Shown piece by piece: positions 2,366 through 57,948 of a stretch of 64,000 nucleotides of DNA; positions within the stretch are counted from its first letter, which is position 1; the number at the start of each line of letters is the position of its first letter. The DNA comes from an uncultured Nitrososphaerota archaeon. GTDB taxonomy: Archaea; Thermoproteota; Methanomethylicia; Nezhaarchaeales; B40-G2. The notes below the pieces were generated by a model. The model searched no databases. It was not told the DNA's origin and saw only the letters and a program-made list of their open reading frames with translations. The stretch covers positions 19,966 through 83,965 of the forward strand of contig CAZVDL010000002.1 of NCBI GenBank assembly GCA_964626365.1. Reading direction: 5' to 3'. A program made the translations under genes and the position numbers.

Positions 2366-3937
2366 CTAGGCTGCTGGGGCTCTGGCTTCGCTGGCTAAGG
2401 CCCTCTCTAAGGCCCTCTCGTAGTCAGGCTCGCGCTTCTCGCCGCATAGCTCCGTAGCGAACTTAGCTATATAGGGTAAGTACTTCATTAATGTGGCCCT
2501 CCTCCTCTTAACGCTCTCTTCTCTTCTCTTCTTAGCCAAGTACATCTTTAATTTACGGGCTGCCTCCTTCAACCCCCACTCTATTTCGTATTCCACCTCG
2601 GGCCTGTCAGCTATGTACTCCTTTCCCACGGTCTTGTACGGTATCTTAGTTGAGCACACGTGTACGAAGAAGGCTATGGGCATGGTCTCGGGATTCAACT
2701 TGTACCTCCACCACTTGATCTTCTTTATCACCTTCATCGACACATCGTTGTGCACGTCGTAGAGCAAGGGTATCTTATTGGCATACCTATACAGGTTGAT
2801 CTCGCCTTGGCTGGGGGCGGGGACTCCTCCACCGTAAGCCATGGCTACCTCCACGATGAAGGGGTGGCCGCTATAAGCTGAGGGCTTACGCTGCACAACG
2901 GCCACGAACTCAGGCTTTAACTCCTTCTTAATCCCTATCTCTAGCAGCTCAGGGCCTATGGGCGATAGACATGATGGGTCCGGTGGAAGCCAGCCATCGA
3001 AGTTGTTCATCGCCTTAACCAGCTTAGGTATGAGGTCTTCTCGCTTAAGCAGCTCTTCGATGTCCATTTCTGGGTCGAACTTAGCCTTCTTCAGGAACTT
3101 CAACGCTATCCTCCTACCCACCCTGTGGAAGCTCTCTACGAGGAAGTCTACTAGCTTGCCTCGACCGAACCTTTCTAGCAGCCTCCTTAGGGTCTCTACG
3201 TCTACTCCTTGAGGGTGGGGCAGCACCTCGATAGGTGGCTTAGGCATCTTTTCTGTCTTCCTTCTATAGAAGTATAAAACGCCGTCAGGGTCGATGAAGG
3301 TTAGCTGGCTATAGGGCTCTATGATAGCTACATGCCTCAGGTAGTCCAGGATTTTGCCTCTAGCCCTAGCGTAGTCTCCTTGAAACTTAAGCTTAACTAC
3401 GGTCCCCCTCCACTGGCCGTGGTTCCTCTCCACGACCTCCTCCTTGGTTATAGGTTCGTTCCTCTCTATGTCTACCATGAGTTTGTAGGAGTACCTCTCC
3501 ATGCCTCCCGTGCTCGATATTACGTGAACGGGGGCGTTGGTGGTTATCTGGCCATAGAGCACTGCCATTTTGCCGCCGAGGCCGAAAATACCCCTTGTCT
3601 GGCGTAGCGTGTACTTGGAGCCGAAGAGGACTTGCGCGAAGGCTCTCTTAATGTAGCGCCTAGGGACCCCCCTACCGTTATCCTCCACCTTTATTTCGAG
3701 CGCTCCCCCCTCTACGTGTCTAAGCCTAACGTAGATGTCGGGTAAGAAACCTCCACTTTCACAGGCATCCATACTGTTCTCTACAAGCTCCCTAAAGATC
3801 GTGTAGGTGCTCCTGACAGGGTTGTCAAATCCTGCTATTTCCCTGTTTCTATAGAAGAAGTCGGCAGCTGATATGGCCCTCCACTTCTCCTCTACGACGG
3901 CGGTACCTCTCAAAGACGCTGCACCTATCCTAACCAT
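2366..3937 (-). CDS. top6B: DNA topoisomerase VI subunit B (GHKL ATPase)
   Basis: A 523-aa ORF with a Bergerat ATP-binding fold (ELVENSMDA, DNGRGVP, GLGGKM). Confidence 0.85.
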   Translation of the reverse strand: MVRIGAASLRGTAVVEEKWRAISAADFFYRNREIAGFDNPVRSTYTIFRELVENSMDACESGGFLPDIYVRLRHVEGGALEIKVEDNGRGVPRRYIKRAFAQVLFGSKYTLRQTRGIFGLGGKMAVLYGQITTNAPVHVISSTGGMERYSYKLMVDIERNEPITKEEVVERNHGQWRGTVVKLKFQGDYARARGKILDYLRHVAIIEPYSQLTFIDPDGVLYFYRRKTEKMPKPPIEVLPHPQGVDVETLRRLLERFGRGKLVDFLVESFHRVGRRIALKFLKKAKFDPEMDIEELLKREDLIPKLVKAMNNFDGWLPPDPSCLSPIGPELLEIGIKKELKPEFVAVVQRKPSAYSGHPFIVEVAMAYGGGVPAPSQGEINLYRYANKIPLLYDVHNDVSMKVIKKIKWWRYKLNPETMPIAFFVHVCSTKIPYKTVGKEYIADRPEVEYEIEWGLKEAARKLKMYLAKKRREESVKRRRATLMKYLPYIAKFATELCGEKREPDYERALERALASEARAPAA

Positions 3938-4044
3938 AGTCCCTCGTCAATTGATTAAGCTTTCGATAATCATTACTAAGGCGGGAGTTAACGGCAGCCA
4001 ACTAGTTTTGAAAAGCGTTTAAGGAGCTAAGCCTTCCTCGCAGG

Positions 4045-6709: not shown

Positions 6710-8002
6710 TTGGCCTCACTCCTCATTAAGCGCTGCTCAGTTATCTTGACACAGGACGAGCGCCGTAGAGTATTGAAGAGGTCTTCAATATACATCGAGG
6801 ACGGAGTGATAGCGGGCGTAGGTAAAGTGGAGTGCGAAGCTGAGACGGTGATCGACGGGGCTGGCAAGATGGCGCTCCCAGCCTTCATTAATGCTCATAC
6901 TCACGCTGCTATGACCCTACTTAGAGGGTACGCCGACGACCTACCCCTAAAACAATGGCTAGAGCAGAAAATATGGCCACTGGAGAGGAAGTTAACCGAG
7001 TATCATTGCTATTGGGGGGCCCTATTAGCCTGCATAGAGATGGCTAAGGCGGGCTGTAGTTGCTTCCTAGACATGTATTTCTACCCGGAGGCTACCGCTG
7101 AGGCTGCCGTCAAGGTAGGGCTTAAAGCCGTGATCTCCTACGGCATGTTTGACTTCAACGACCCCTCCCTAACGGAGCAGCAGCTTGAGGGGGCTAGACG
7201 TTTCCTCGGTAAGGCCTCAGAGCTGAGGATGAAAGGAGTTGAGCCAGCGCTAGGTCCACATGCCCCCTATACGTGTAGCGACCGGTTACTTATGGAGGCT
7301 GCTGAGCTAGCTAGGAGGAACAGGGTCCTGCTACATATACACCTAGCTGAGACGGTTGAGGAGGTGGATGAGTTTAAGAGGCGTTACGGTAGGACCGAGA
7401 TCGAACATCTTGATAGGCTGGGTGTACTTGGACCAGACGTAGTAGCGGCGCATTGTGTTCACCTATCTAGGAGGGATGTAAGGCTCTTAGCTCGTAGAGG
7501 AGTTAAGGTGGTACATTGCCCTGTAAGCAACTTAAAACTAGGCTCAGGCATAGCACCCGTAACCGAGCTACTTAAAGCCAAGGTTACAGTGGCCCTAGGG
7601 ACTGATGGAGCGGCTAGCAACAATTCACTGAGCATGCTGGGGGCTATCAAGCTAGCAGCGCTTCTACAAAAGGCCTTATACAGAGACCCGTCAGCTATCT
7701 CGGCTCAACAGGTACTCGACATGGCTACACTGGGAGGCGCTCTCTCTCTTAACCTACGCTCAGGTAAGTTGGCTGAAGGTTATCGAGGCGACGTAGTCCT
7801 CCTCGACCTTAACAGGCCTAGCTACACCCCTCTCTTCTCGCCTACATCGCATGTCGTGTACGCCTCCGAAGGGACGGAGGCGTACACGCTGGTGGTCGAC
7901 GGCCGCGTCATAGTTAGTAGGGGTAAGGTGGTGTCAATCGATGAAAGATCGGTTATACGTGAGGCCTCTAGGGCGGCTAGGGACCTAGTGGCCCGCCGTT
8001 AA
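6710..8002 (+). CDS. mtaD: Amidohydrolase of the MTA/SAH deaminase (MtaD/DadD) family
   Basis: It has the metal-binding HxH motif (NAHTHAAMT) and the HIHLAET and GTDGAASNN motifs of the ATZ/TRZ-type deaminase family. It sits adjacent to ahcY. Confidence 0.7.
6888..6985. repeat. 98-bp segment 100 % identical (inverted) to 10879..10976 in the paralogous amidohydrolase gene
   Basis: This is a direct comparison of the sequence with the reverse complement of 10879..10976. Confidence 0.85.
7486..7560. repeat. 75-bp segment 100 % identical (inverted) to 10280..10354; a further 31-bp identical patch at 7417..7447 vs 10394..10424
   Basis: This is a direct sequence comparison. Confidence 0.85.
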
Positions 8003-9258
8003 GTGCCTACTCTCCACTCGGAGAGGTATCTTCGCTGCTCCTCAGTTAACTCGTCGATCTCCACTCCCATGGCCTCTAGCTTAAGCCTCGCCACCATTCT
8101 GTCTATCTCGTCCGGGACCTTGTAGACCTTAGGCTGTAGCCCTTCGCTCTTAGCTATGTACTCAGCGCTTAAAGCCTGGTTGCTGAAGCTCATATCCATG
8201 ACCTCGCTTGGGTGGCCCTCAGCGGCAGCTAAGTTTACTAGCCTGCCCTCAGCGATGAGGTAAAGGCGCCTACCATCCCTTAGCCTATACTCGTCCACGT
8301 AATCCCTAACCCTCCTCTTCTCCGCAGCCAGCCTCTCTAAGTCGGGTATGCAGATCTCAACGTTGAAGTGACCACTATTAGCTAGTATGGCCCCGTCTTT
8401 CATGAGCTTCAGGTGCTCTCCTCTAATCACGTTGATGTCCCCGGTGGCGGTTATGAATATGTCCCCTATCTTAGCGGCCTCCTTCATTGACATCACCCTA
8501 AACCCGTCCATGACCGCCTCGAGCGCCCTTAAAGGATCTACCTCAGTCACCACGACGTTTGCTCCCATCCCCCTAGCCCTCATAGCTATGCCCCTGCCGC
8601 ACCAGCCATAGCCCGCCACGACAACGGTCTTCCCAGCTAAGAGTATATTGGTGGCTCTAAGCAGCCCGTCGATGGTGCTCTGTCCCGTGCCGTAGCGGTT
8701 GTCGAAGAGGTACTTCGTGTAGGCATCGTTGACCGCTATGATCGGGTACCTAAGCTCCCCTGCCTCAGCCATCGCCCTAAGCCTAATGACTCCGGTCGTG
8801 GTCTCTTCAGTGCCTCCCTTAACTCCCTTAGCCCCTGCTTCGTGAACCTTAAAGGTTAAGTCGGCGCCGTCGTCCATAGTTATCTGGGGCTTGGCCTCGA
8901 CAACCCTCATTATGCACTCATAATACTCCTCCACGGTTTCACCTCTCCACGCGTAGACGTGTGCTCCCTCAGCCGCTAAGGCGGCCGCTACCTCGTCTTG
9001 GGTCGATAATGGGTTAGAGCCAGCCAAGTATACCTCTGCGCCTCCGGTCATCAACGTCCTGACGAGCACGGCGGTTTCCTTAGTCACATGTAAACAACAA
9101 CCAAGCCTCCAGCCTTCAAGAGGCCTCTCCTTAGCGAAGCGCTCTCTCACCTTCATCAACACAGGCATGAGCCTTTCAGCCCACTCTATGAGGAGCCTTC
9201 CCTTCTCAGCTAACCCTATGTCCTTAACCTTGTAGCTCAAAGCTAAACCCCTGTACAA
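7999..9258 (-). CDS. ahcY: Adenosylhomocysteinase (S-adenosyl-L-homocysteine hydrolase)
   Basis: It has a Rossmann NAD motif ([12 protein letters not shown]) and the conserved SAHH core, at 419 aa. Confidence 0.9.
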
Positions 9259-9302: not shown

Positions 9303-9569
9303 TCAAGGGGGTCCGAGATGTTCGAGTAACTCTCTAAGCTTTTTACCCTTAAGGTTAACATCAAGCTTAGCTGATAGCTTGGTAAGGATTAAGTCCTCGA
9401 CCACCTTAGCTAAATCGGCGAATACCTCGCCGAGGCAGAACGCTAAGACGTCTAGCCTTCGTGGCAACTCCTCACGGTTAACATTGAACTTAACCTCGCA
9501 GTAATGATATACAACCTCCTTGACAACCTCGCCGAAGAACTGGAGGCCCTCTTCGATAGCCTCCTTCAC
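9303..9569 (-). CDS. Small conserved hypothetical protein, paralog of ORF 53220..53561
   Basis: It shares the pattern EAIEEgL..FG..VKEVV..YC..K..V.RE.LP..L......CL.E.F with the small protein overlapping the KaiC-like ATPase gene. Confidence 0.4.
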   Translation of the reverse strand: MKEAIEEGLQFFGEVVKEVVYHYCEVKFNVNREELPRRLDVLAFCLGEVFADLAKVVEDLILTKLSAKLDVNLKGKKLRELLEHLGPP

Positions 9570-9810: not shown

Positions 9811-11160
9811 TTAGCGTTTAGAGGTCTTTTCCCCAAGCCTTCTCAACAGCTTCTCCTTCTCCTTTTCAGCCTCGACTAACAGGTCCTCTACCTTCATCCT
9901 CTTAAACTCCCCATCCTCAACTATCAACTCCCCGTCCACCAATACATGCCTCACATCCAGTGACCTCGCTGCATAGACAAGGTGGCTTACCTCGTCGTAT
10001 AAGGGGGTTAAGTGGGGCTTCCTAAGCTCCACGGCCACTAAGTCGGCTTTCATCCCGGGCTTGATCTTACCGGTTGTTTGCCCTAAGCCTAGGGCTTCAG
10101 CTCCTCCAGCTGTAGCCATCTCCAAGGCTGTCCACGCTGAAATAGAGGTAGGGTCTCTCGAGACGCCTTTATGTAGAAGGGCCGCCAGCTTGACGGTCTC
10201 GAGTAAGTCTAGTAGGTTGTTGCTACAGGCGCTATCAGTTCCCAGGGCCACGGTCACGCCACTGCTCAAAAGCCTCGGCACGGGTGCTATGCCTGAGCCT
10301 AGTTTTAAGTTGCTTACAGGGCAATGTACCACCTTAACTCCTCTACGAGCTAAGACCTCTACGTCTCCATCTGTTAGCCAGACGCAATGTGCTGCTACTA
10401 CGTCTGGTCCAAGTACACCCAGCCTATCAAGGTACACTGCCACCCCTCCACGTACATCCACCTTAAACGCCTCCTCCACCTTGAAGGCCTCGTCCTCAGT
10501 TTCAGCTAGATGTATATGCCATAGCAGTCTATCGCCTAGCTTAGAGCTCAGCTCGTCGGTTAGCAGCCTCAACTCCTTAAGGTACTCAGGGCCCACCGTG
10601 TAGGGGGCGTGAGGGTCTATGGTCACCTTAACCCTGCCGCCGTAGGAACCATGCCACCTCCTTACCAAGTCCTCGATGGCCTTTAAGTCCTCTTCTCTAC
10701 GCCACTCAAAGCACACGTGTCCCACGAACCCCCTCAGCCCTGCCTCGGCTATCGCCTTAGCCTCGTTGTAGTCGGGGAAGTAGTGGTACATGGTGTTTAT
10801 CGTGGTAACCCCCATCAATGCCGATTCTATGCAGGCTAGTAGAGCCCCCACGTAGATGGACCTGCCGTCCATGCAGGCCTCCAGTGGCCATATTTTCTGC
10901 TCTAGCCATTGTTTTAGGGGTAGGTCGTCGGCGTACCCTCTAAGTAGGGTCATAGCAGCGTGAGTATGAGCATTAACCAGCCCAGGGATTACTGTGCAGG
11001 TGGAGGCGTCAAGTACCTCGTAGCCCCTATACTTCGGAGCCAGCTCCCTTCTAGGACCCACGTCGACTATCTTGTCCTCCTCAATTATTATCAGCGCATC
11101 TTTAATGATCCTGCCTCCGTCCATTGTGACCGCGGAACCGGCTTTAATAGCCAGGTCCAC
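9811..11160 (-). CDS. Second MtaD-like amidohydrolase (paralog of 6710..8002, inverted orientation)
   Basis: It has the same HxH, HIHLAET and GTD motifs. Patches of 98, 75 and 31 bp are 100 % identical at nucleotide level to the paralog (see repeat features). Confidence 0.7.
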   Translation of the reverse strand: MDLAIKAGSAVTMDGGRIIKDALIIIEEDKIVDVGPRRELAPKYRGYEVLDASTCTVIPGLVNAHTHAAMTLLRGYADDLPLKQWLEQKIWPLEACMDGRSIYVGALLACIESALMGVTTINTMYHYFPDYNEAKAIAEAGLRGFVGHVCFEWRREEDLKAIEDLVRRWHGSYGGRVKVTIDPHAPYTVGPEYLKELRLLTDELSSKLGDRLLWHIHLAETEDEAFKVEEAFKVDVRGGVAVYLDRLGVLGPDVVAAHCVWLTDGDVEVLARRGVKVVHCPVSNLKLGSGIAPVPRLLSSGVTVALGTDSACSNNLLDLLETVKLAALLHKGVSRDPTSISAWTALEMATAGGAEALGLGQTTGKIKPGMKADLVAVELRKPHLTPLYDEVSHLVYAARSLDVRHVLVDGELIVEDGEFKRMKVEDLLVEAEKEKEKLLRRLGEKTSKR

Positions 11161-11163
11161 GGC

Positions 11164-12228
11164 CTAAGCCCCCATGTAGCCATTAATATGAGAGGGCTCG
11201 AAGACCTCGGTCCTAAGGGAGTTGAGGGCTAGGTTTAACAGCTTACGCCTCACCTCCACGTGGAGGGTGGGGTACCATATGGGGCTGGCTATGACGAGGG
11301 CCCTCCAGGCGTAGAAGGGCTGAATCACCTTTAATAGCTCCTCGTCCCCTGTCAAATCCAAGTAGTTAGATAGGAAGGTTTTATAGAGCTCCTCGAAGGC
11401 TCCTTCAAGCCTGCCATACCGCCTAAGCGAGTAGAACACGTAGTTAATGGTCATAGCGGCCACGTCGTCCGCCGCTTCTCCCCACTCTCCTCGGCTCCTA
11501 TCCAGGACGGTAAAGTCCACCCCCTCTCTAAATAGGACGTTCCAGGGGTGGAAGTCTCCATGGACCTGGCACAGCCTATAAGCCTTGTCTTTAAGCTTCC
11601 ACCTCCACTCTACGCACAGCTTCTCAAGCTCCATGAGCTCCTCCCTGCTTACGAAGTCTGTTGAGGGAGGGTAGTTGTCTATGATACCCATGATACACTC
11701 GCCGTGCCCAACGAGCTCCCTAATTCTCCTAATGTAGAGCTCAGGCTCGTTTCTCCTAACTGAGTGTATCTCAGCCAGGTAGCTGGACAACGCCCTACAA
11801 CGCTCTCTATCCAGCTGGGTTAATTCACCTCTAGTGGCTATCTCCTCTAGGTCCCGCCAGTACTCTCTTCCTTCTGCGGCCTCAACTAGGAGAAAGAACT
11901 CTTCACATCCCTTCAGGCTAACTATCCCCCTAGGCGTAAAGGCCCCGACGTCCAGAGCCTTAACGTGCCTTGGAAGCTTGGGGTAGGCGAAGTACGCCCA
12001 TATAAGGCTGTGGGCCCTATCGGCTACGTGTTCATGTCCAAAATGGTCAGGCTTCATGGTCTGGAGGACCGCTCTCTTAACCTCTCCTTTAACCTCAAAG
12101 GTTAGGAGGCGGGGGGCGCCGTAGCCGAACTCCTTAACATCCCCCACCTCCCCGCCTAGCCTTTCAGCCTTAATCAGCTTGACAGGGGCCTCGAAAACCC
12201 TCGATAGGTAGGCCTCAAGGTTCTCCAA
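11164..12228 (-). CDS. Phosphotransferase-family kinase (APH/choline-kinase fold; possibly a methylthioribose/sugar kinase)
   Basis: It has the Brenner catalytic motif HGDFHPWNVLF and a DRSRGEWGE metal-binding region. Its position in the SAM-recycling neighbourhood suggests an MtnK-like role, but that is inferred from context only. Confidence 0.5.
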   Translation of the reverse strand: MENLEAYLSRVFEAPVKLIKAERLGGEVGDVKEFGYGAPRLLTFEVKGEVKRAVLQTMKPDHFGHEHVADRAHSLIWAYFAYPKLPRHVKALDVGAFTPRGIVSLKGCEEFFLLVEAAEGREYWRDLEEIATRGELTQLDRERCRALSSYLAEIHSVRRNEPELYIRRIRELVGHGECIMGIIDNYPPSTDFVSREELMELEKLCVEWRWKLKDKAYRLCQVHGDFHPWNVLFREGVDFTVLDRSRGEWGEAADDVAAMTINYVFYSLRRYGRLEGAFEELYKTFLSNYLDLTGDEELLKVIQPFYAWRALVIASPIWYPTLHVEVRRKLLNLALNSLRTEVFEPSHINGYMGA

Positions 12229-28384: not shown

Positions 28385-28475
28385 GGCGGCCGTGGTCTAG
28401 CCTGGTCCAGGACACAGAGCGCTGAGCGTGTAGGCCTTCCACGCCTGTTACCCGGGTTCGAATCCCGGCGGCCGC
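28385..28475 (+). tRNA. tRNA-Gly (anticodon UCC) with a 16-nt non-canonical intron inside the 5' strand of the anticodon stem
   Basis: The exons give GCGGCCG UG GUCU AGCCUGGUCCA GGAC A CAG[AGCGCUGAGCGUGUAG]GC CUUCCAC GCCUG UUAC CCGGG UUCGAAU CCCGG CGGCCGC A. The acceptor and T-arm are typical of archaeal tRNA-Gly. Confidence 0.7.
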
Positions 28476-28486
28476 ACTTCCTCCCT

Positions 28487-52602: not shown

Positions 52603-52830
52603 TTGAAGTTAAAATATCCATCGAACAGGGAGATAGCTGAGACGATAAGGGAGGTTTTAAGTGACCCTCTTTTAAGGCCGGAGGTCTTCGTGGACAGGGT
52701 TAAGGAATCACTGAGGCAGCGTGGCCTTCAGCCAAGCCTTGTTACTCCAAGACGTGTCTGGAGGCTTTACGAGGAGATGGTTAAGCGCAAAGTTATACTT
52801 GACGTGTTAGGTGTAGTAGAAAAGCTTTAG
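52603..52830 (+). CDS. Small hypothetical protein between two tRNA genes
   Basis: A 75-aa ORF whose coding status is uncertain. Confidence 0.25.
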   Translation: MKLKYPSNREIAETIREVLSDPLLRPEVFVDRVKESLRQRGLQPSLVTPRRVWRLYEEMVKRKVILDVLGVVEKL

Positions 52831-52969: not shown

Positions 52970-53219
52970 CATCTTTACTCTGCTACTCATTACTACTCCT
53001 TGGGAGTGTAGGCCATGCAGGAGGGGGTCTCCTTCACCCATAAACCATAGTACTCGCACCAGTATGTTCCATCGGGCCTAGTCTTTCTAGCTTTAAGGCA
53101 GTTGTGGCACGAGAGCTCGTAGGGCATGGCTCTAAGCACCATATTACCTTCCCTTATAGGGGTTTTAAGCCTTACCTCAAAAACCTTAATAATTCTATTA
53201 AAGGAGTCTAAGTAGATAC

Positions 53220-53561
53220 TTGGGCGTGCTTTTAAGGTGGGTGTTGGTGGGTCAACGTAAAAGCTTTGAGCAACTCTTACTTGAAGCTATTGAGGAGGCT
53301 CTCTCGCTGTTCGGCGGGAGCGTTAAGGAGGTGGTGTTATTTTATTGTTCAACTAAACACGGGGTTTCAAGGGAGCAGCTTCCAGTTAAGTTGAACTCCT
53401 TTGTTAAGTGTTTAGAGGAGATCTTTAGCTATGCCTCCAGAGCGATAGAGATGCAAGTGGCTTCACGCCTCTACGCTAAGTTAGGCTTAAGCTTTGTTCA
53501 TCGAAAGGATAGGCGGCTAATAGACTACGTCGAGGAGGCTAGGAGGAGATATGAGGGCTGA
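53220..53561 (+). CDS. Small conserved protein, overlapping and probably co-translated with the KaiC-like ATPase; paralog of 9303..9569
   Basis: It shares the pattern with ORF 9303..9569, and its stop overlaps the start of the next gene by 11 nt. Confidence 0.45.
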   Translation: MGVLLRWVLVGQRKSFEQLLLEAIEEALSLFGGSVKEVVLFYCSTKHGVSREQLPVKLNSFVKCLEEIFSYASRAIEMQVASRLYAKLGLSFVHRKDRRLIDYVEEARRRYEG

Positions 53562-54990
53562 GTCCATACTGAGTTTCGGTGAACCTCTCCTCGACGAGCT
53601 CTTAGGGGGCCTACGTAGAGGCAGCTTAGTTTTAATCGCTGGCAATCCAGGGACCGGCAAGACCATATTCTCAGCCCAGTGTACATACCGCAACGTAATA
53701 GACTTGGGGCTTAAGGCGGTGTATGTATCCATGGCTGAACCTAAACACGTGTTCTATCAATGTATGCAGGCGCTGGGCATGGACTTTAAGCCCCTAGAAG
53801 ATGAAGGCAAGTTTAGGTTCTTAGATCTAGCCTCCCCCATGGATCCTACGCTAATGGAGGGTATGCTGGAGGAGGCATTAAAGGAGGCGCTGTCGCTTAA
53901 AGCTGATCTTCTCGTGCTAGACTCGTTGAGTGCCGTCCTTCAACTGCTTGGACGTGAAAGGACCAGGAGCCTCGTGCACTCCCTGTTTACAAGGGTGGTC
54001 AGGGCAGCTGGCATAACCACCATAGCCATAGTTGAGGTCCCTAAGGGCTCTAAAAGAATGGGCTTTGGGGTTGAGGAGTTCATAGCCGATGTAGTACTAC
54101 TCCTGGGGAGGAGGGAGATTGAAGCTAGGCTTGGTAGGGAGCTCGAGATTGTGAAGGCTAGGGGGGCTGAGGTTAAGCATCCTAGACTCATCTACACGCT
54201 CCATGGAGGCTTCAAGCTCCTGCCACCCATGAAGAACTGGAGGATGAAGGCAGCTGAGCGCTTTAAGCCCATTGAGCCCAGAGGAGACCGCTACTCCACT
54301 GGGATAACCGATTTAGACGAGGTTTTAGGCGGTTACCCTAAGGGCGGAGTCGTATATCTGGAGGTTGGAGAAAACATTGAGACCTCTCAATACCACCTCT
54401 TCGCGGCACCGCCATTAATCAACTTCACCGCGATGGGTAAGGGGGTCATAGTGTTCCCGAGCATGGGCATAGATGCTAGCGTGGTTTACAGGGTTGGAAA
54501 AGAGTACGGCTTAACGGATGAGGAGTTCAAGTTTAAGATGAGGGTAGTTCAACCCAGGGCCCTTAAAACCAAGGAACTGAAGGAGAGATGGCTAGTTGAA
54601 GTTGAGGGTAGAAGCTTTGAGGACGACTACAACGTCTGGCTCAACTCCGTTAGGAGTCTCCAAGAGTCCACAGGAAGCCACGAAGTGTGTGCCTTTATGG
54701 GTGCTGACAATATCTACTATTATTATGGTGAGGAACCCCTATATCGTTTCTTAAGCTTAGAGTCCTTAAGGACGAGGATGGAGGGCGGCCTTCTCTTAGT
54801 GGTGACGAAGCCTGGCCTTGAACCCAGGATAATTAAGGTGATCTCCAACGTCTCCAACATACATTTGAAGCTGGTTAGGCGTAGGGGGGCATTGTTGATC
54901 TATGGAATTAAGCCTAGGACTGAGCTCTACGCCGTGTTAGTCGACCTATCGAAGGGCTATGCGATGCCTAAGCTAATCCCCGTGGTCTAG
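53551..54990 (+). CDS. KaiC/RecA-superfamily tandem-domain ATPase (first domain intact Walker A/B, second domain degenerate)
   Basis: Domain 1 has GNPGTGKT and DLLVLDSLS. Domain 2 has GGVVYLEVGENIETSQ, where the P-loop lysine is lost. Confidence 0.7.
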   Translation: MRAESILSFGEPLLDELLGGLRRGSLVLIAGNPGTGKTIFSAQCTYRNVIDLGLKAVYVSMAEPKHVFYQCMQALGMDFKPLEDEGKFRFLDLASPMDPTLMEGMLEEALKEALSLKADLLVLDSLSAVLQLLGRERTRSLVHSLFTRVVRAAGITTIAIVEVPKGSKRMGFGVEEFIADVVLLLGRREIEARLGRELEIVKARGAEVKHPRLIYTLHGGFKLLPPMKNWRMKAAERFKPIEPRGDRYSTGITDLDEVLGGYPKGGVVYLEVGENIETSQYHLFAAPPLINFTAMGKGVIVFPSMGIDASVVYRVGKEYGLTDEEFKFKMRVVQPRALKTKELKERWLVEVEGRSFEDDYNVWLNSVRSLQESTGSHEVCAFMGADNIYYYYGEEPLYRFLSLESLRTRMEGGLLLVVTKPGLEPRIIKVISNVSNIHLKLVRRRGALLIYGIKPRTELYAVLVDLSKGYAMPKLIPVV

Positions 54991-55691
54991 CTCTCCAATG
55001 ATTTGCCCTTGACCAGCTTTTTAACGACCCCTGAAGTTGAGCCTACGTAAACCACGTCCACCATATTGACAAATATGCCCACCTCCACGACGCCGGGCAG
55101 CCGCTTAATACTCTGCTCGAGCTCAGTAGGCTTTTCTATAGGAGGAAACCTGGCGTCTATGATGAAGTTCCCGTTGTCCGTAACGACAGGGCCGTCCTTA
55201 ACCTCGCCCGCCAGCCTGAGTTTAGGCTCTCCGCCTAGCTCCTTTAACTTCCTCGAGACGTATCGCTGAGCGAAAGGTAGTACTTCCACGGGTACCGGCT
55301 TAGTCTCTCCTAACCTTTTAACTACCTTAGACTCATCCACAACTATGATCAACCTCTTAGCGGCGGAATCTACAACTTTTTCCCTCGCCAGCGCCGCTCC
55401 CATACCTTTAATTAAGTTGAGGTTCTCGTCTACCTCGTCGGCGCCGTCGACGGCCAAGTCCAACTCCACAGCCTCCTCTAGGGTGGTTAACGGTATGCCG
55501 CTCTCTATGGCCTTTAAATATGCTTGATACGAGGTGGGGACTCCCTTAATTCTTAACCCCTCCTTCACCCTCCTCCCAAGGGCCTCTATAAAGTAGGCCG
55601 TGGTGGACCCTGTACCGAGACCTATAGTCATCCCGTCCTCAACGAGCTCTAAGGCGGCTAGGGCTGCGGCCTGCTTAGCCTTCTCAGACAT
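54987..55691 (-). CDS. rpiA: Ribose-5-phosphate isomerase A
   Basis: It has GLGTGST, DGADE and KGMGAALAREK motifs. I place the start at the internal Met (MSEKAKQAA..), whereas the track ORF extends to 55766. Confidence 0.8.
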   Translation of the reverse strand: MSEKAKQAAALAALELVEDGMTIGLGTGSTTAYFIEALGRRVKEGLRIKGVPTSYQAYLKAIESGIPLTTLEEAVELDLAVDGADEVDENLNLIKGMGAALAREKVVDSAAKRLIIVVDESKVVKRLGETKPVPVEVLPFAQRYVSRKLKELGGEPKLRLAGEVKDGPVVTDNGNFIIDARFPPIEKPTELEQSIKRLPGVVEVGIFVNMVDVVYVGSTSGVVKKLVKGKSLES

Positions 55692-55967
55692 CTCTTCCCC
55701 TCCTAGCCCATAAACCCTTGTAGGCAGTATATTTCGTCTTGGTACCTCTTCATAAACCTTGGACACTTAGCGCACTCAGTAACTAGCACGACGTTGCCGT
55801 CCTCGGGGCAAACTAGAACCTCCAAGTCTACCACCCTAAACCTCTCCGGGTCGGGGTCTGAGCCGTAAGACTTAATGAAGTCGTCGAGTAATAGCGGAGG
55901 GCTCAGGAGGTCATGGAGGTCTAGCACGATTCTCAGCCTTCTTACTCTCACCCTTCTAACCTCCAAT

Positions 55968-56684
55968 TCACTCTCTCCCTCTCGTAGAGAGTATTCGTAG
56001 CCACGGATTGTCCTTAAAGAAGGAGGGCAGCTCACTTGGCGGGGCCTCTTCTCTTAGCGGGGTAGCCTCCACCATGGGTTTATGCTCTCTTCTCATCTCC
56101 GACAGCATGCTTTCAAGGGACGCGATCTTATCCAGTATGGAGGTTAATGATGAGAGCAGCCTCCTTAAGCCGTCCTCTAAGTTGGCTCTAAGCTCCGCGA
56201 CCTCACCCTCAAGCCTATTGACCCTGAAGGCCAGCTCCTCATCTACGGGCTTAGCCAGCGTTTCATGCCCTGTTTCTAGCCTTCTTACCTTCTCCTCTAG
56301 AGCGCTAAGTTGTCTTCTCAGCTCCTCGAGCCCCCTTAAGTTGAGGGTCATTCTTCTCTTAGCAGGGGTGGCTTCGAGGACCTGGCCATCCACTATTAAC
56401 ATGCCCACTCCAACCTCGTGGAGTATAGAGGCGTCGACGACGGTGGCTATAGGCTTACTGACAGCTACGTAGGCTAAATCGTAGCCGTCTGTGGATGAAG
56501 CCCTTAACAGTCTTCTTAAAGCCTCTCCACGGGCTTTTAGGGCCTCTTCGTCGATTAAGTAGACAGCCACCCTTCCGCTAGGCCCTTTAAAGCTTAAGCT
56601 GGGACCCTGAGGAGGTGGGGGCTCCTCCACGTATCCCTTAAGTTGAAAGTATCTTCTGACGGCTTCAGCTATCGCTCTAGTCAT
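55968..56684 (-). CDS. Coiled-coil protein immediately downstream of crenactin (candidate arcadin-2-like crenactin partner)
   Basis: An N-terminal alpha/beta segment is followed by a long heptad-repeat region. It overlaps the crenactin start by 8 nt. The arcadin-2 assignment is positional inference only. Confidence 0.4.
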   Translation of the reverse strand: MTRAIAEAVRRYFQLKGYVEEPPPPQGPSLSFKGPSGRVAVYLIDEEALKARGEALRRLLRASSTDGYDLAYVAVSKPIATVVDASILHEVGVGMLIVDGQVLEATPAKRRMTLNLRGLEELRRQLSALEEKVRRLETGHETLAKPVDEELAFRVNRLEGEVAELRANLEDGLRRLLSSLTSILDKIASLESMLSEMRREHKPMVEATPLREEAPPSELPSFFKDNPWLRILSTRGRE

Positions 56685-57948
56685 GAATCCTTAGCCATCC
56701 CTCCATCCTATCCCAAGACCAGGAGTAGTCTTCAGGTACCGCGTAGCCGTAGATAATGCAGCCCCTCCACACGCTGAACTTAGGCTCAGGGGCTACGTCT
56801 ACGCTTACGCCCTCAATGCCTTTTTCGCTTAGTAACAGCTTTAATTTAGTGGCTGAGTCGACTGCTAACTCCCTGTACTGTTGAGGGGCTTTCCAGTGGA
56901 AGTTACCTCCGGAGAGCAGGATTTTTCCGTAGAGGTATGGTTGTAGCTCCACGGGGCACTTCTCTACAGCCTCTAGGACGGCCTCGCCTAGGTCCAGCAT
57001 GCCCCTGAATAACACGTCGCCAACCTTGACGTCCTTGGGCTTAGGCATACCTCGCTTGAAATAGCTCTCGAAGATTTCATGTTTAGGGTTGAACACGTAC
57101 TCGCCGATCAAGAATCTGGCCCAGGACTCCTTGCCTAGGTCTATCTCGATGCGGGTCCCAGGCACCCTATACCTAGCCCTGAAGGATTCGGGGTCGCTTT
57201 TTGCCCTTCTAACCGCTTCATCCAGGTTGCGTGGAATTAGCCCTAGCTCCTCCTTCACCTTCCTAACGAGGGCCTCCTCCTTGGCTAAATCGCCGTAGCC
57301 AGCGTCGTATAGAATTTGGCTTGTCAACATATCGGCGTCGCTCCCCCCTCTATTTAGCACGACCATGGCTGTCTTAATCGGGTATCTTGATATGGGACAT
57401 ACCTGCGTATTGCCGTGTCCGCTCTCTATGACTACGCAGGTCGGCACCTTGTGGGCGATGGCTACTGCTAATGGCTGAGGTATTATGGTCACTGCCTTCA
57501 CTAGTCCAGTCTCTTCAGCTATCCTTACGTGTATGTCGAAGATCTTCTCATACATGTAGCGTGGAGCTATGGCTGAGAGGGCGGCGCACACATAGAACCC
57601 CTTAAACTCTGCCTCGCTGCGCCTAAACATTTCAAGCCCATACTTGGTTATCTCGTAAATGACCTTCCACGCCTTCTCGTCGTCCTTCCCCACGATGCCG
57701 TTCCTCATCGGGTAAACCATACGCGAAGCTAGTTCCTCCCTTGACCCCAAGTAGAGAGCTAGGTCCCTTCCGACGACCACCTCTTTAGCTGTACCCATCA
57801 ACCTATACATTATTGATGAGGTGTCGGGGAAGTATCCTCGGTTCTCTATCACCTCGGGCCTCTCGCCTAACGTTATGGGCCCGAACTTATAATCGCTAGT
57901 CCCGTAATCCTCCCCAAAGGTGTACTTACGCTTATAAGCCTCACTCAA
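56677..57948 (-). CDS. Crenactin (archaeal actin homolog of Thermoproteales)
   Basis: It has an actin-fold phosphate-2 motif VIESGHGNTQVCPI (compare actin DSGDGVTHNVPI) and an adenosine motif ILLSGGNFHWKAPQ (compare actin LSGGTTM). At 423 aa its size matches crenactin. Confidence 0.7.
   Translation of the reverse strand: MSEAYKRKYTFGEDYGTSDYKFGPITLGERPEVIENRGYFPDTSSIMYRLMGTAKEVVVGRDLALYLGSREELASRMVYPMRNGIVGKDDEKAWKVIYEITKYGLEMFRRSEAEFKGFYVCAALSAIAPRYMYEKIFDIHVRIAEETGLVKAVTIIPQPLAVAIAHKVPTCVVIESGHGNTQVCPISRYPIKTAMVVLNRGGSDADMLTSQILYDAGYGDLAKEEALVRKVKEELGLIPRNLDEAVRRAKSDPESFRARYRVPGTRIEIDLGKESWARFLIGEYVFNPKHEIFESYFKRGMPKPKDVKVGDVLFRGMLDLGEAVLEAVEKCPVELQPYLYGKILLSGGNFHWKAPQQYRELAVDSATKLKLLLSEKGIEGVSVDVAPEPKFSVWRGCIIYGYAVPEDYSWSWDRMEGWLRIHD

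Follow-up and report, generated by a model that had tools for sequence, protein, structure and literature searches.

We report here on a pair of overlapping genes at 53220 to 54990 of the window, the whole 64,000-nucleotide stretch of contig CAZVDL010000002.1 from an uncultured archaeon of the Nezhaarchaeales, in which the gene of a small helical protein immediately precedes that of a KaiC-like ATPase. With moderate confidence, we interpret the pair as a two-gene signalling module in which the ATPase would work as an ATP-dependent switch and the small protein as its cognate protein-binding adaptor. The features on which this interpretation is based are the following:

53220..53561, plus strand: small helical partner, an open reading frame (ORF) with a TTG start and a maximal length of 113 aa, bearing a divergent DUF3227/NitrOD5/PH0832-like domain
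53534..53561, plus strand: gene junction, with GGAGG motifs resembling Shine-Dalgarno sequences at 53534-53538 and 53542-53546 and an 11-nt overlap at 53551-53561
53551..54990, plus strand: KaiC-like ATPase of 479 aa with an ATG start, made of an active KaiC/RecA domain (aa ~1-232) and an inactivated KaiC-like domain (aa ~240-479)
53641..53664, plus strand: Walker A motif (P-loop) GNPGTGKT of domain 1, aa 31-38, with G31, G34, G36, K37 and T38 invariant in 44 homologues
53908..53925, plus strand: Walker B motif LLVLDS of domain 1, aa 120-125, with D124 invariant in the 44 homologues
54367..54390, plus strand: GENIETSQ, the degenerate counterpart in domain 2 of the P-loop, located by aligning domain 1 with domain 2; GK[ST] is absent
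9303..9569, minus strand: paralog of the small protein, 88 aa long and encoded on its own, belonging to an orphan clade (41% identity over 83 aa, E 2e-21)

The initial annotation had proposed a 113-aa ORF overlapping by 11 nt the start of a two-domain ATPase, and we confirmed both ORFs as well as the overlap. The two GGAGG motifs (53534-53546) lie immediately 5' of the ATPase ATG, which fits the expectation for an internal cistron. The true start of the small gene is probably one of codons 8 to 10 (GTG 53241, TTG 53244 or GTG 53247), which would give a product of about 104-106 aa. The annotated start is indeed likely too far 5', since residues 1-11 are disordered in the AlphaFold model, with a predicted local distance difference test (pLDDT) below 50, homologues are 104-105 aa long and an AGGTGG at 53235 precedes the three candidate codons. 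The 64-kb window contains no further KaiC-like ORF, and a PADLOC scan returned no defence-system match.

The small protein is a divergent branch of the DUF3227/NitrOD5 family (PF11537), for which a solved structure exists, that of PH0832 from Pyrococcus horikoshii (2P9X). Its AlphaFold2 (AF2) model (pLDDT 90.6) exhibits four helices (16-29, 33-47, 58-87 and 100-112), and the top Foldseek match of this model, which is also the only significant one, was 2P9X (probability 1.00, TM-score 0.72/0.81, root-mean-square deviation (rmsd) 2.5 A, 99 columns). No significant match was obtained against the viral structures of BFVD. Pfam and NCBIfam scans of the two small proteins of the window gave nothing usable, with a sub-threshold HapK match only. 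Among their relatives, PF11537 (NitrOD5, formerly DUF3227) was matched by 6 of 28 in one set and 20 of 147 in another, with a best E-value of 6.8e-8. Family profiles also matched PH0832, with an E-value of 0.004 and then of 1.8e-4, and hhalign aligned the profile of the window family with a PH0832 orthologue from Pyrococcus listed under PF11537 (E 2.7e-5, 87 columns). The earlier statement that this small family could not be assigned to any known domain thus has to be abandoned; the family is tied to KaiC and not to something unrelated. The number of homologues recovered depended on the search, from 5 close ones with a word-indexed search to 28 with a profile, and an exhaustive HMMER search yielded 1825 clusters (50% identity) at E<=1e-3, 460 of them at E<=1e-10. 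PF11537 misses most of the 1825 clusters, and the DUF3227/PH0832 family extends far beyond what Pfam captures. In the closest subfamily, orphan paralog included, two cysteines, C43 (nt ~53346-53348) and C64 (nt ~53409-53411), are invariant; they are not so in the wider family, and a disulfide or redox site in a thermophile is possible.

The linkage of the two genes is conserved across genomes. In the four close relatives of the pair, whose ATPases are 59-68% identical to that of the window, the small gene precedes the ATPase gene, and overlaps of 4-8 nt between the two were found in loci L081-L085. These relatives also share a convergent rpiA and, where the contig reaches it, the crenactin cluster described below. 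In the GTDB genome collection, 80 loci (L001-L080) were retrieved with an ATPase profile and all their ORFs were scanned with a hidden Markov model (HMM) of the small family, with the following counts for full-length orthologues:

12 loci: strong family member (E<1e-17) at most about 120 bp 3' of the ATPase, same strand
1 locus (L037): strong family member immediately 5' of the ATPase
8 loci: weak, divergent member immediately 5', often overlapping the ATPase start
1 locus: divergently oriented family member
1 locus: family member 1.3 kb off

A family member adjoins the orthologous ATPase in about 20 loci from Bathyarchaeia and related lineages, mostly on its 3' side. Gene order flips between lineages. 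All-against-all clustering of the neighbours, which served to look for a third conserved component, found none: apart from the small family, no gene family is conserved next to the ATPase orthologues.

Linkage was also recovered outside the set of close orthologues. The metagenome-assembled genome (MAG) GCA_003650875.1 ("Thermoprotei archaeon", DRJ97_ locus tags), one contig of which is identical to the window, encodes a second pair (L086, contig QMSK01000118.1, 1482-3163) at a locus truncated by the contig end. Its ATPase, of 460 aa, has the same organisation of a KaiC domain followed by an inactivated KaiC domain (hereafter iKaiC) and is about 30% identical to the family; its small partner (P0133) is encoded 4 bp 3'. 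In Nitrososphaera MAGs, genes for true two-domain KaiC proteins are followed by members of the small family. Two-domain KaiC genes of Thermococcus gammatolerans and Pyrococcus kukulkanii share the last 8 nt of their 3' end with a PF11537 gene, and the P. kukulkanii protein is the PH0832 orthologue (E 9.4e-31). Finally, two proteins combine the small domain with MEDS, which is an inactivated KaiC-type domain: P0197 and the product of a gene of Candidatus Hecatella orcuttiae (L018, 5401-6381) lying directly 3' of the ATPase. The small domain also occurs at the C-terminus of a CheB methylesterase (P0217), where it replaces the usual N-terminal REC domain. The proposal that one transcript carries a KaiC-like ATPase and its small cognate partner, a member of a conserved family, is thus backed by a linkage that extends across genomes. 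As a separate observation, a protein of 156-183 aa is encoded at about 3492-3983 (plus strand) in a subclade of Bathyarchaeia (L024, L025 and L028-L030) and overlaps the ATPase start by 12-15 nt; the small-family HMM matches its C-terminal half weakly (E 1e-4 to 1e-7), and it is probably a very divergent family member with an N-terminal extension.

The small gene could be nothing more than a syntenic neighbour of the ATPase, without functional coupling between the two. In the lineage of the window, the whole region, with rpiA, the crenactin cluster and a four-cysteine mini-protein (see below), is syntenic, so that adjacency there is by itself weak proof. However, the adjacency recurs in distant lineages, in other gene orders, with other KaiC subfamilies and in the form of iKaiC fusions, and the genes overlap; coincidence is largely refuted by this recurrent linkage, and we regard it as extremely improbable.

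The second protein of the pair consists of a KaiC domain followed by an iKaiC domain. Residues 13-216 match PF06745 (KaiC) with 155.1 bits, for a gathering score of 26.6, and no catalytic motif expected of a CI-type KaiC ATPase is missing from the N-terminal domain: besides the Walker motifs, it carries the invariant catalytic glutamate E63 and a GVEEF motif, all these residues being invariant or nearly so in the 44 homologues. Conversely, the loss of the P-loop in domain 2 is family-wide, the consensus of the homologues lacking the motif. The intact Walker motifs of domain 1 and the lost P-loop lysine of domain 2 in the initial annotation were thus both confirmed. Its "tandem KaiC" is retained for the presence of two KaiC-type domains and dropped for the second one as an ATPase: the protein is not a functional tandem ATPase and only domain 1 can be one. 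The AF2 model (pLDDT 92.4, predicted TM-score 0.88) comprises two alpha/beta domains, and Foldseek aligned it with two-domain KaiC structures over about 500 columns (E ~1e-31). A different orientation of the two domains relative to each other accounts for the TM-scores (0.41-0.48) and the rmsd (about 18 A) of these alignments. We found 143 homologues of about 475 aa, mostly from Bathyarchaeia, together with Nitrososphaerales, Nezhaarchaeales and "Geothermarchaeota" MAGs.

The KaiC equivalogs of NCBIfam, PRK09302 and TIGR02655, remained below their cut-offs (100.3 versus 408 and 59.8 versus 546, respectively), as did the ArlH model NF052589 (56.3 versus 215) and the P-loop model of GvpD, PF07088 (15.8 bits versus 24); the curated RadA and RadB models were also far under theirs. 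True orthology with KaiC, ArlH/FlaH or GvpD was therefore rejected. These scores bear on another alternative, a clock-like or timer-like system based on a KaiC oscillator, on which the small protein would act in the manner of KaiB. The homology with KaiC would agree with it; nonetheless, both equivalogs fall far short, the partner is all-helical and not thioredoxin-like, and a CII-type autokinase cycle is impossible for a domain 2 without a P-loop. We see hardly any likelihood of such a clock.

The ATPase might also be a RadA paralog (RadC/Rad55-like) acting on DNA as a recombination or repair mediator, with the small protein as an accessory. This would be in line with its RecA-superfamily fold and with weak NCBIfam matches to RadA/Sms and RadB (E 2e-5 to 5e-3), which are far below the cut-offs. 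However, the best matches are KaiC-type throughout, repair genes are absent from the adjacent genes and members of the small family occur in fusions with signalling domains, which makes a function in repair very improbable.

Domain 2 brings in the main rival. PF20440 (GvpD_bR2, basic region 2) matches aa 238-304 above its gathering score (32.3 versus 27.9 bits) but only through profile positions 2-69 of 254, and the domain is an inactivated KaiC-like domain, possibly of the GvpD_bR2 type. The succession of a P-loop KaiC domain and of a partly matched PF20440-like region recalls GvpD, and the small protein could be an effector, such as a regulator, that the ATPase binds and, using ATP, inactivates or directs to degradation. 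The two proteins would then be repressor and target, not switch and adaptor. GvpD requires both its P-loop and its arginine-rich regions for the breakdown of GvpE (PMC4390858), and four basic residues of the window protein, R193, R196, K202 and R204, are invariant in its 12 closest homologues. On the other hand, the small protein is unrelated to GvpE, the PF07088 score is insufficient, the bR2 model is matched at 69 of its 254 positions only, and no gvp gene is present among the neighbours examined. Fusions with MEDS, CheB and REC also suit an interaction or adaptor domain better. We consider this GvpD-like logic unlikely.

In the switch-and-adaptor module that we favour, the ATPase would oligomerise and undergo ATP-driven conformational changes, by analogy with KaiC, ArlH and GvpD. 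Both genes would be read from one transcript, with their translation probably coupled, and the small protein would bind its cognate ATPase, most plausibly at the nucleotide-free C-terminal domain. This domain is devoid of canonical nucleotide binding and is yet strongly conserved among the homologues, which suits a docking platform. Depending on the direction of the signal, the small protein would either relay the nucleotide state of the ATPase to other proteins, the cellular targets, or bring inputs to the ATPase. The 88-aa orphan may be a free adaptor or a competitor in the same network, free paralogs in general providing extra connectors.

Several observations weigh against this interpretation. 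The small proteins of the window are not themselves matched by PF11537, even at E<=1. The similarity of the small protein to eukaryotic death folds is marginal, the Foldseek comparison with PYD giving E-values of 0.46-4.5 and TM-scores of 0.25-0.31. In the GTDB survey, no family member was detected beside the ATPase in about 13 of the approximately 37 assessable loci. A literature search for DUF3227, PH0832 or NitrOD5 returned Galperin et al. (2018) (PMC5847659) as sole find, and experimental work on any member of the pairing was not found in the literature.

The abstract of Makarova, Galperin and Koonin in mBio (2017) reportedly predicted DEATH-like adaptors linked to KaiC-like proteins. Systems that pair a KaiC-like ATPase and a "Death-like" adaptor of the DUF3227 type have been described computationally since 2017, and the locus of the window is a new divergent member, not a new kind of system. 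In thaumarchaeal response regulators, NitrOD5 (PF11537) has been described as an output domain; it often stands alone, and a genome may hold several copies (PMC5847659). Citing Makarova et al. (2017), the same paper places it among "archaeal Death domain-like" adaptors, a family linked to KaiC hubs. Compared with the modules as cited in that paper (PMC5847659), ours is alike in its iKaiC-bearing ATPase, its helical partner of about 100 aa with the PH0832 fold, the operonic linkage, the several stand-alone copies per genome and the fusions with REC and MEDS. It differs in its small proteins, too divergent for PF11537, and in its lineage, that of an uncultured Thermoprotei MAG. The order also differs, the partner coming first with an overlap in the window, whereas the small gene is downstream in Bathyarchaeia, Nitrososphaera and Thermococcales.

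The comparison with PH0832, deposited as a structural-genomics "hypothetical protein" (2P9X), is close at the level of the fold, which is the same over the whole domain (TM-score 0.72-0.82; profile E 1.8e-4), and the gene of its orthologue starts within the 3' end of a KaiC-like gene. However, sequence identity is only about 21%, and the partner ATPase has two P-loop KaiC domains (PF06745 twice in Pfam) instead of KaiC followed by iKaiC. With GvpD of haloarchaeal gas vesicles, the pair has in common a P-loop KaiC-type domain, a degenerate C-terminal region partly matched by PF20440 and a small partner encoded alongside; it departs from it by the sub-threshold P-loop model, a partner that is not GvpE-like and neighbours, among those examined, devoid of gvp genes. 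Cyanobacterial KaiC (KaiABC) similarly has tandem RecA-like domains, and the motifs of domain 1 resemble those of CI (GVEEF, catalytic glutamate), although domain 2 of the window protein is without a P-loop, the equivalogs fail and KaiA and KaiB are absent. The archaellum protein ArlH resembles our ATPase as a KaiC-type domain acting via protein-protein interactions, but it is a single-domain protein, and archaellum genes are not nearby.

KaiC-like ATPases have been proposed as the main archaeal signalling hubs, yet, to our knowledge, a partner or an output is known for hardly any of them. The locus of the window offers a clean, translationally coupled example of an ATPase and its adaptor from an uncultured Thermoprotei lineage. 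What is new here is a family larger than PF11537 detects, the flips in gene order, the co-occurrence of two cognate pairs and an orphan in one genome, and the KaiC-adjacent position of PH0832. A solved but unannotated structure is thereby recognised as that of a protein whose gene adjoins KaiC in Pyrococcus, and a pair of the same kind is present in a Thermococcus species; if the genetic tools of Thermococcales apply to such strains or to related ones, the predicted interaction between ATPase and adaptor would be directly testable.

The orphan paralog had been recognised in the initial annotation as standing alone next to ahcY, and this holds: the 88-aa protein, identical to P0127 (DRJ97_05890), is encoded beside the S-adenosylhomocysteine hydrolase gene (AdoHcyase, ahcY, 7999-9258). 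Its nearest relatives, P0128-P0131 (44-55% identity), form with it a clade separate from the KaiC-coupled one, whose members are 56-70% identical among themselves. Proteins of the orphan clade terminate in "...LRELxxxL", without the C-terminal DYVEEA helix that is otherwise conserved. On the other contigs examined, the genes of P0128-P0131 are not in an operon with KaiC; one of them has a KaiC gene in divergent orientation about 670 bp away. The adjacency to ahcY is not conserved, the relatives lying in other contexts; the stand-alone state is thus conserved and the ahcY neighbourhood is not. In the window, two paralogous amidohydrolases with long identical stretches and an APH-type kinase flank ahcY and the orphan gene (6710-8002 plus strand, 9811-11160 minus strand, 11164-12228 minus strand). 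As a guess from the ahcY context, the amidohydrolases are possibly MTA/SAH deaminase-like, and the surroundings of ahcY and of the orphan gene suggest a methionine/S-adenosylmethionine-salvage neighbourhood.

Since the MAG holds two pairs of KaiC-iKaiC proteins and adaptors, a broader scenario, which we find rather doubtful, would be a combinatorial KaiC-adaptor network in Thermoprotei and Bathyarchaeia, in which each KaiC-iKaiC paralog has its own co-evolving DUF3227-type adaptor and conserved orphan adaptors are added. Orphans without DYVEEA, including the 88-aa protein, could then be free competitors or cross-connectors. Extra inputs to the module in the lineage of the window may come from C43/C64 as a redox or disulfide switch, or from the four-cysteine mini-protein encoded next to the pair:

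52996..53127, minus strand: Cys4 mini-protein of 44 aa (MPYELSCHNCLKARKTRPDGTYWCEYYGLWVKETPSCMAYTPKE), transcribed divergently from the pair and about 90 bp upstream of it

Copies of this mini-protein, 72-78% identical, occupy the same relative position in L081, L082, L083 and L085, a degree of conservation above that of the pair. Pfam gave no match for it, and the 80 loci of the genome collection (L001-L080) yielded no copy. The mini-protein is a lineage-specific conserved neighbour, and its membership of the module is uncertain. Also upstream of the pair, a 75-aa ORF (52603-52830, plus strand) has counterparts in L081 (63% identity) and L085 (45%) and was not found in L083.

Neighbours of the locus further include a cohesin-domain protein, a tRNA, rpiA, crenactin and cation transporters; gvp, repair and archaellum genes were absent from the neighbours examined. 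On the minus strand (55703-57948), a crenactin-type actin (423 aa, PF00022) follows a coiled-coil protein of 238 aa and a protein of about 90-110 aa, an arrangement that looks like a crenactin/arcadin-like cluster. This cluster is adjoined by rpiA (54987-55766), in an order kept in L083-L085. Farther away in the window, ARAGORN predicted a 92-nt tRNA with a four-base "anticodon" (28386-28477, plus strand), which is probably an intron-containing archaeal tRNA.

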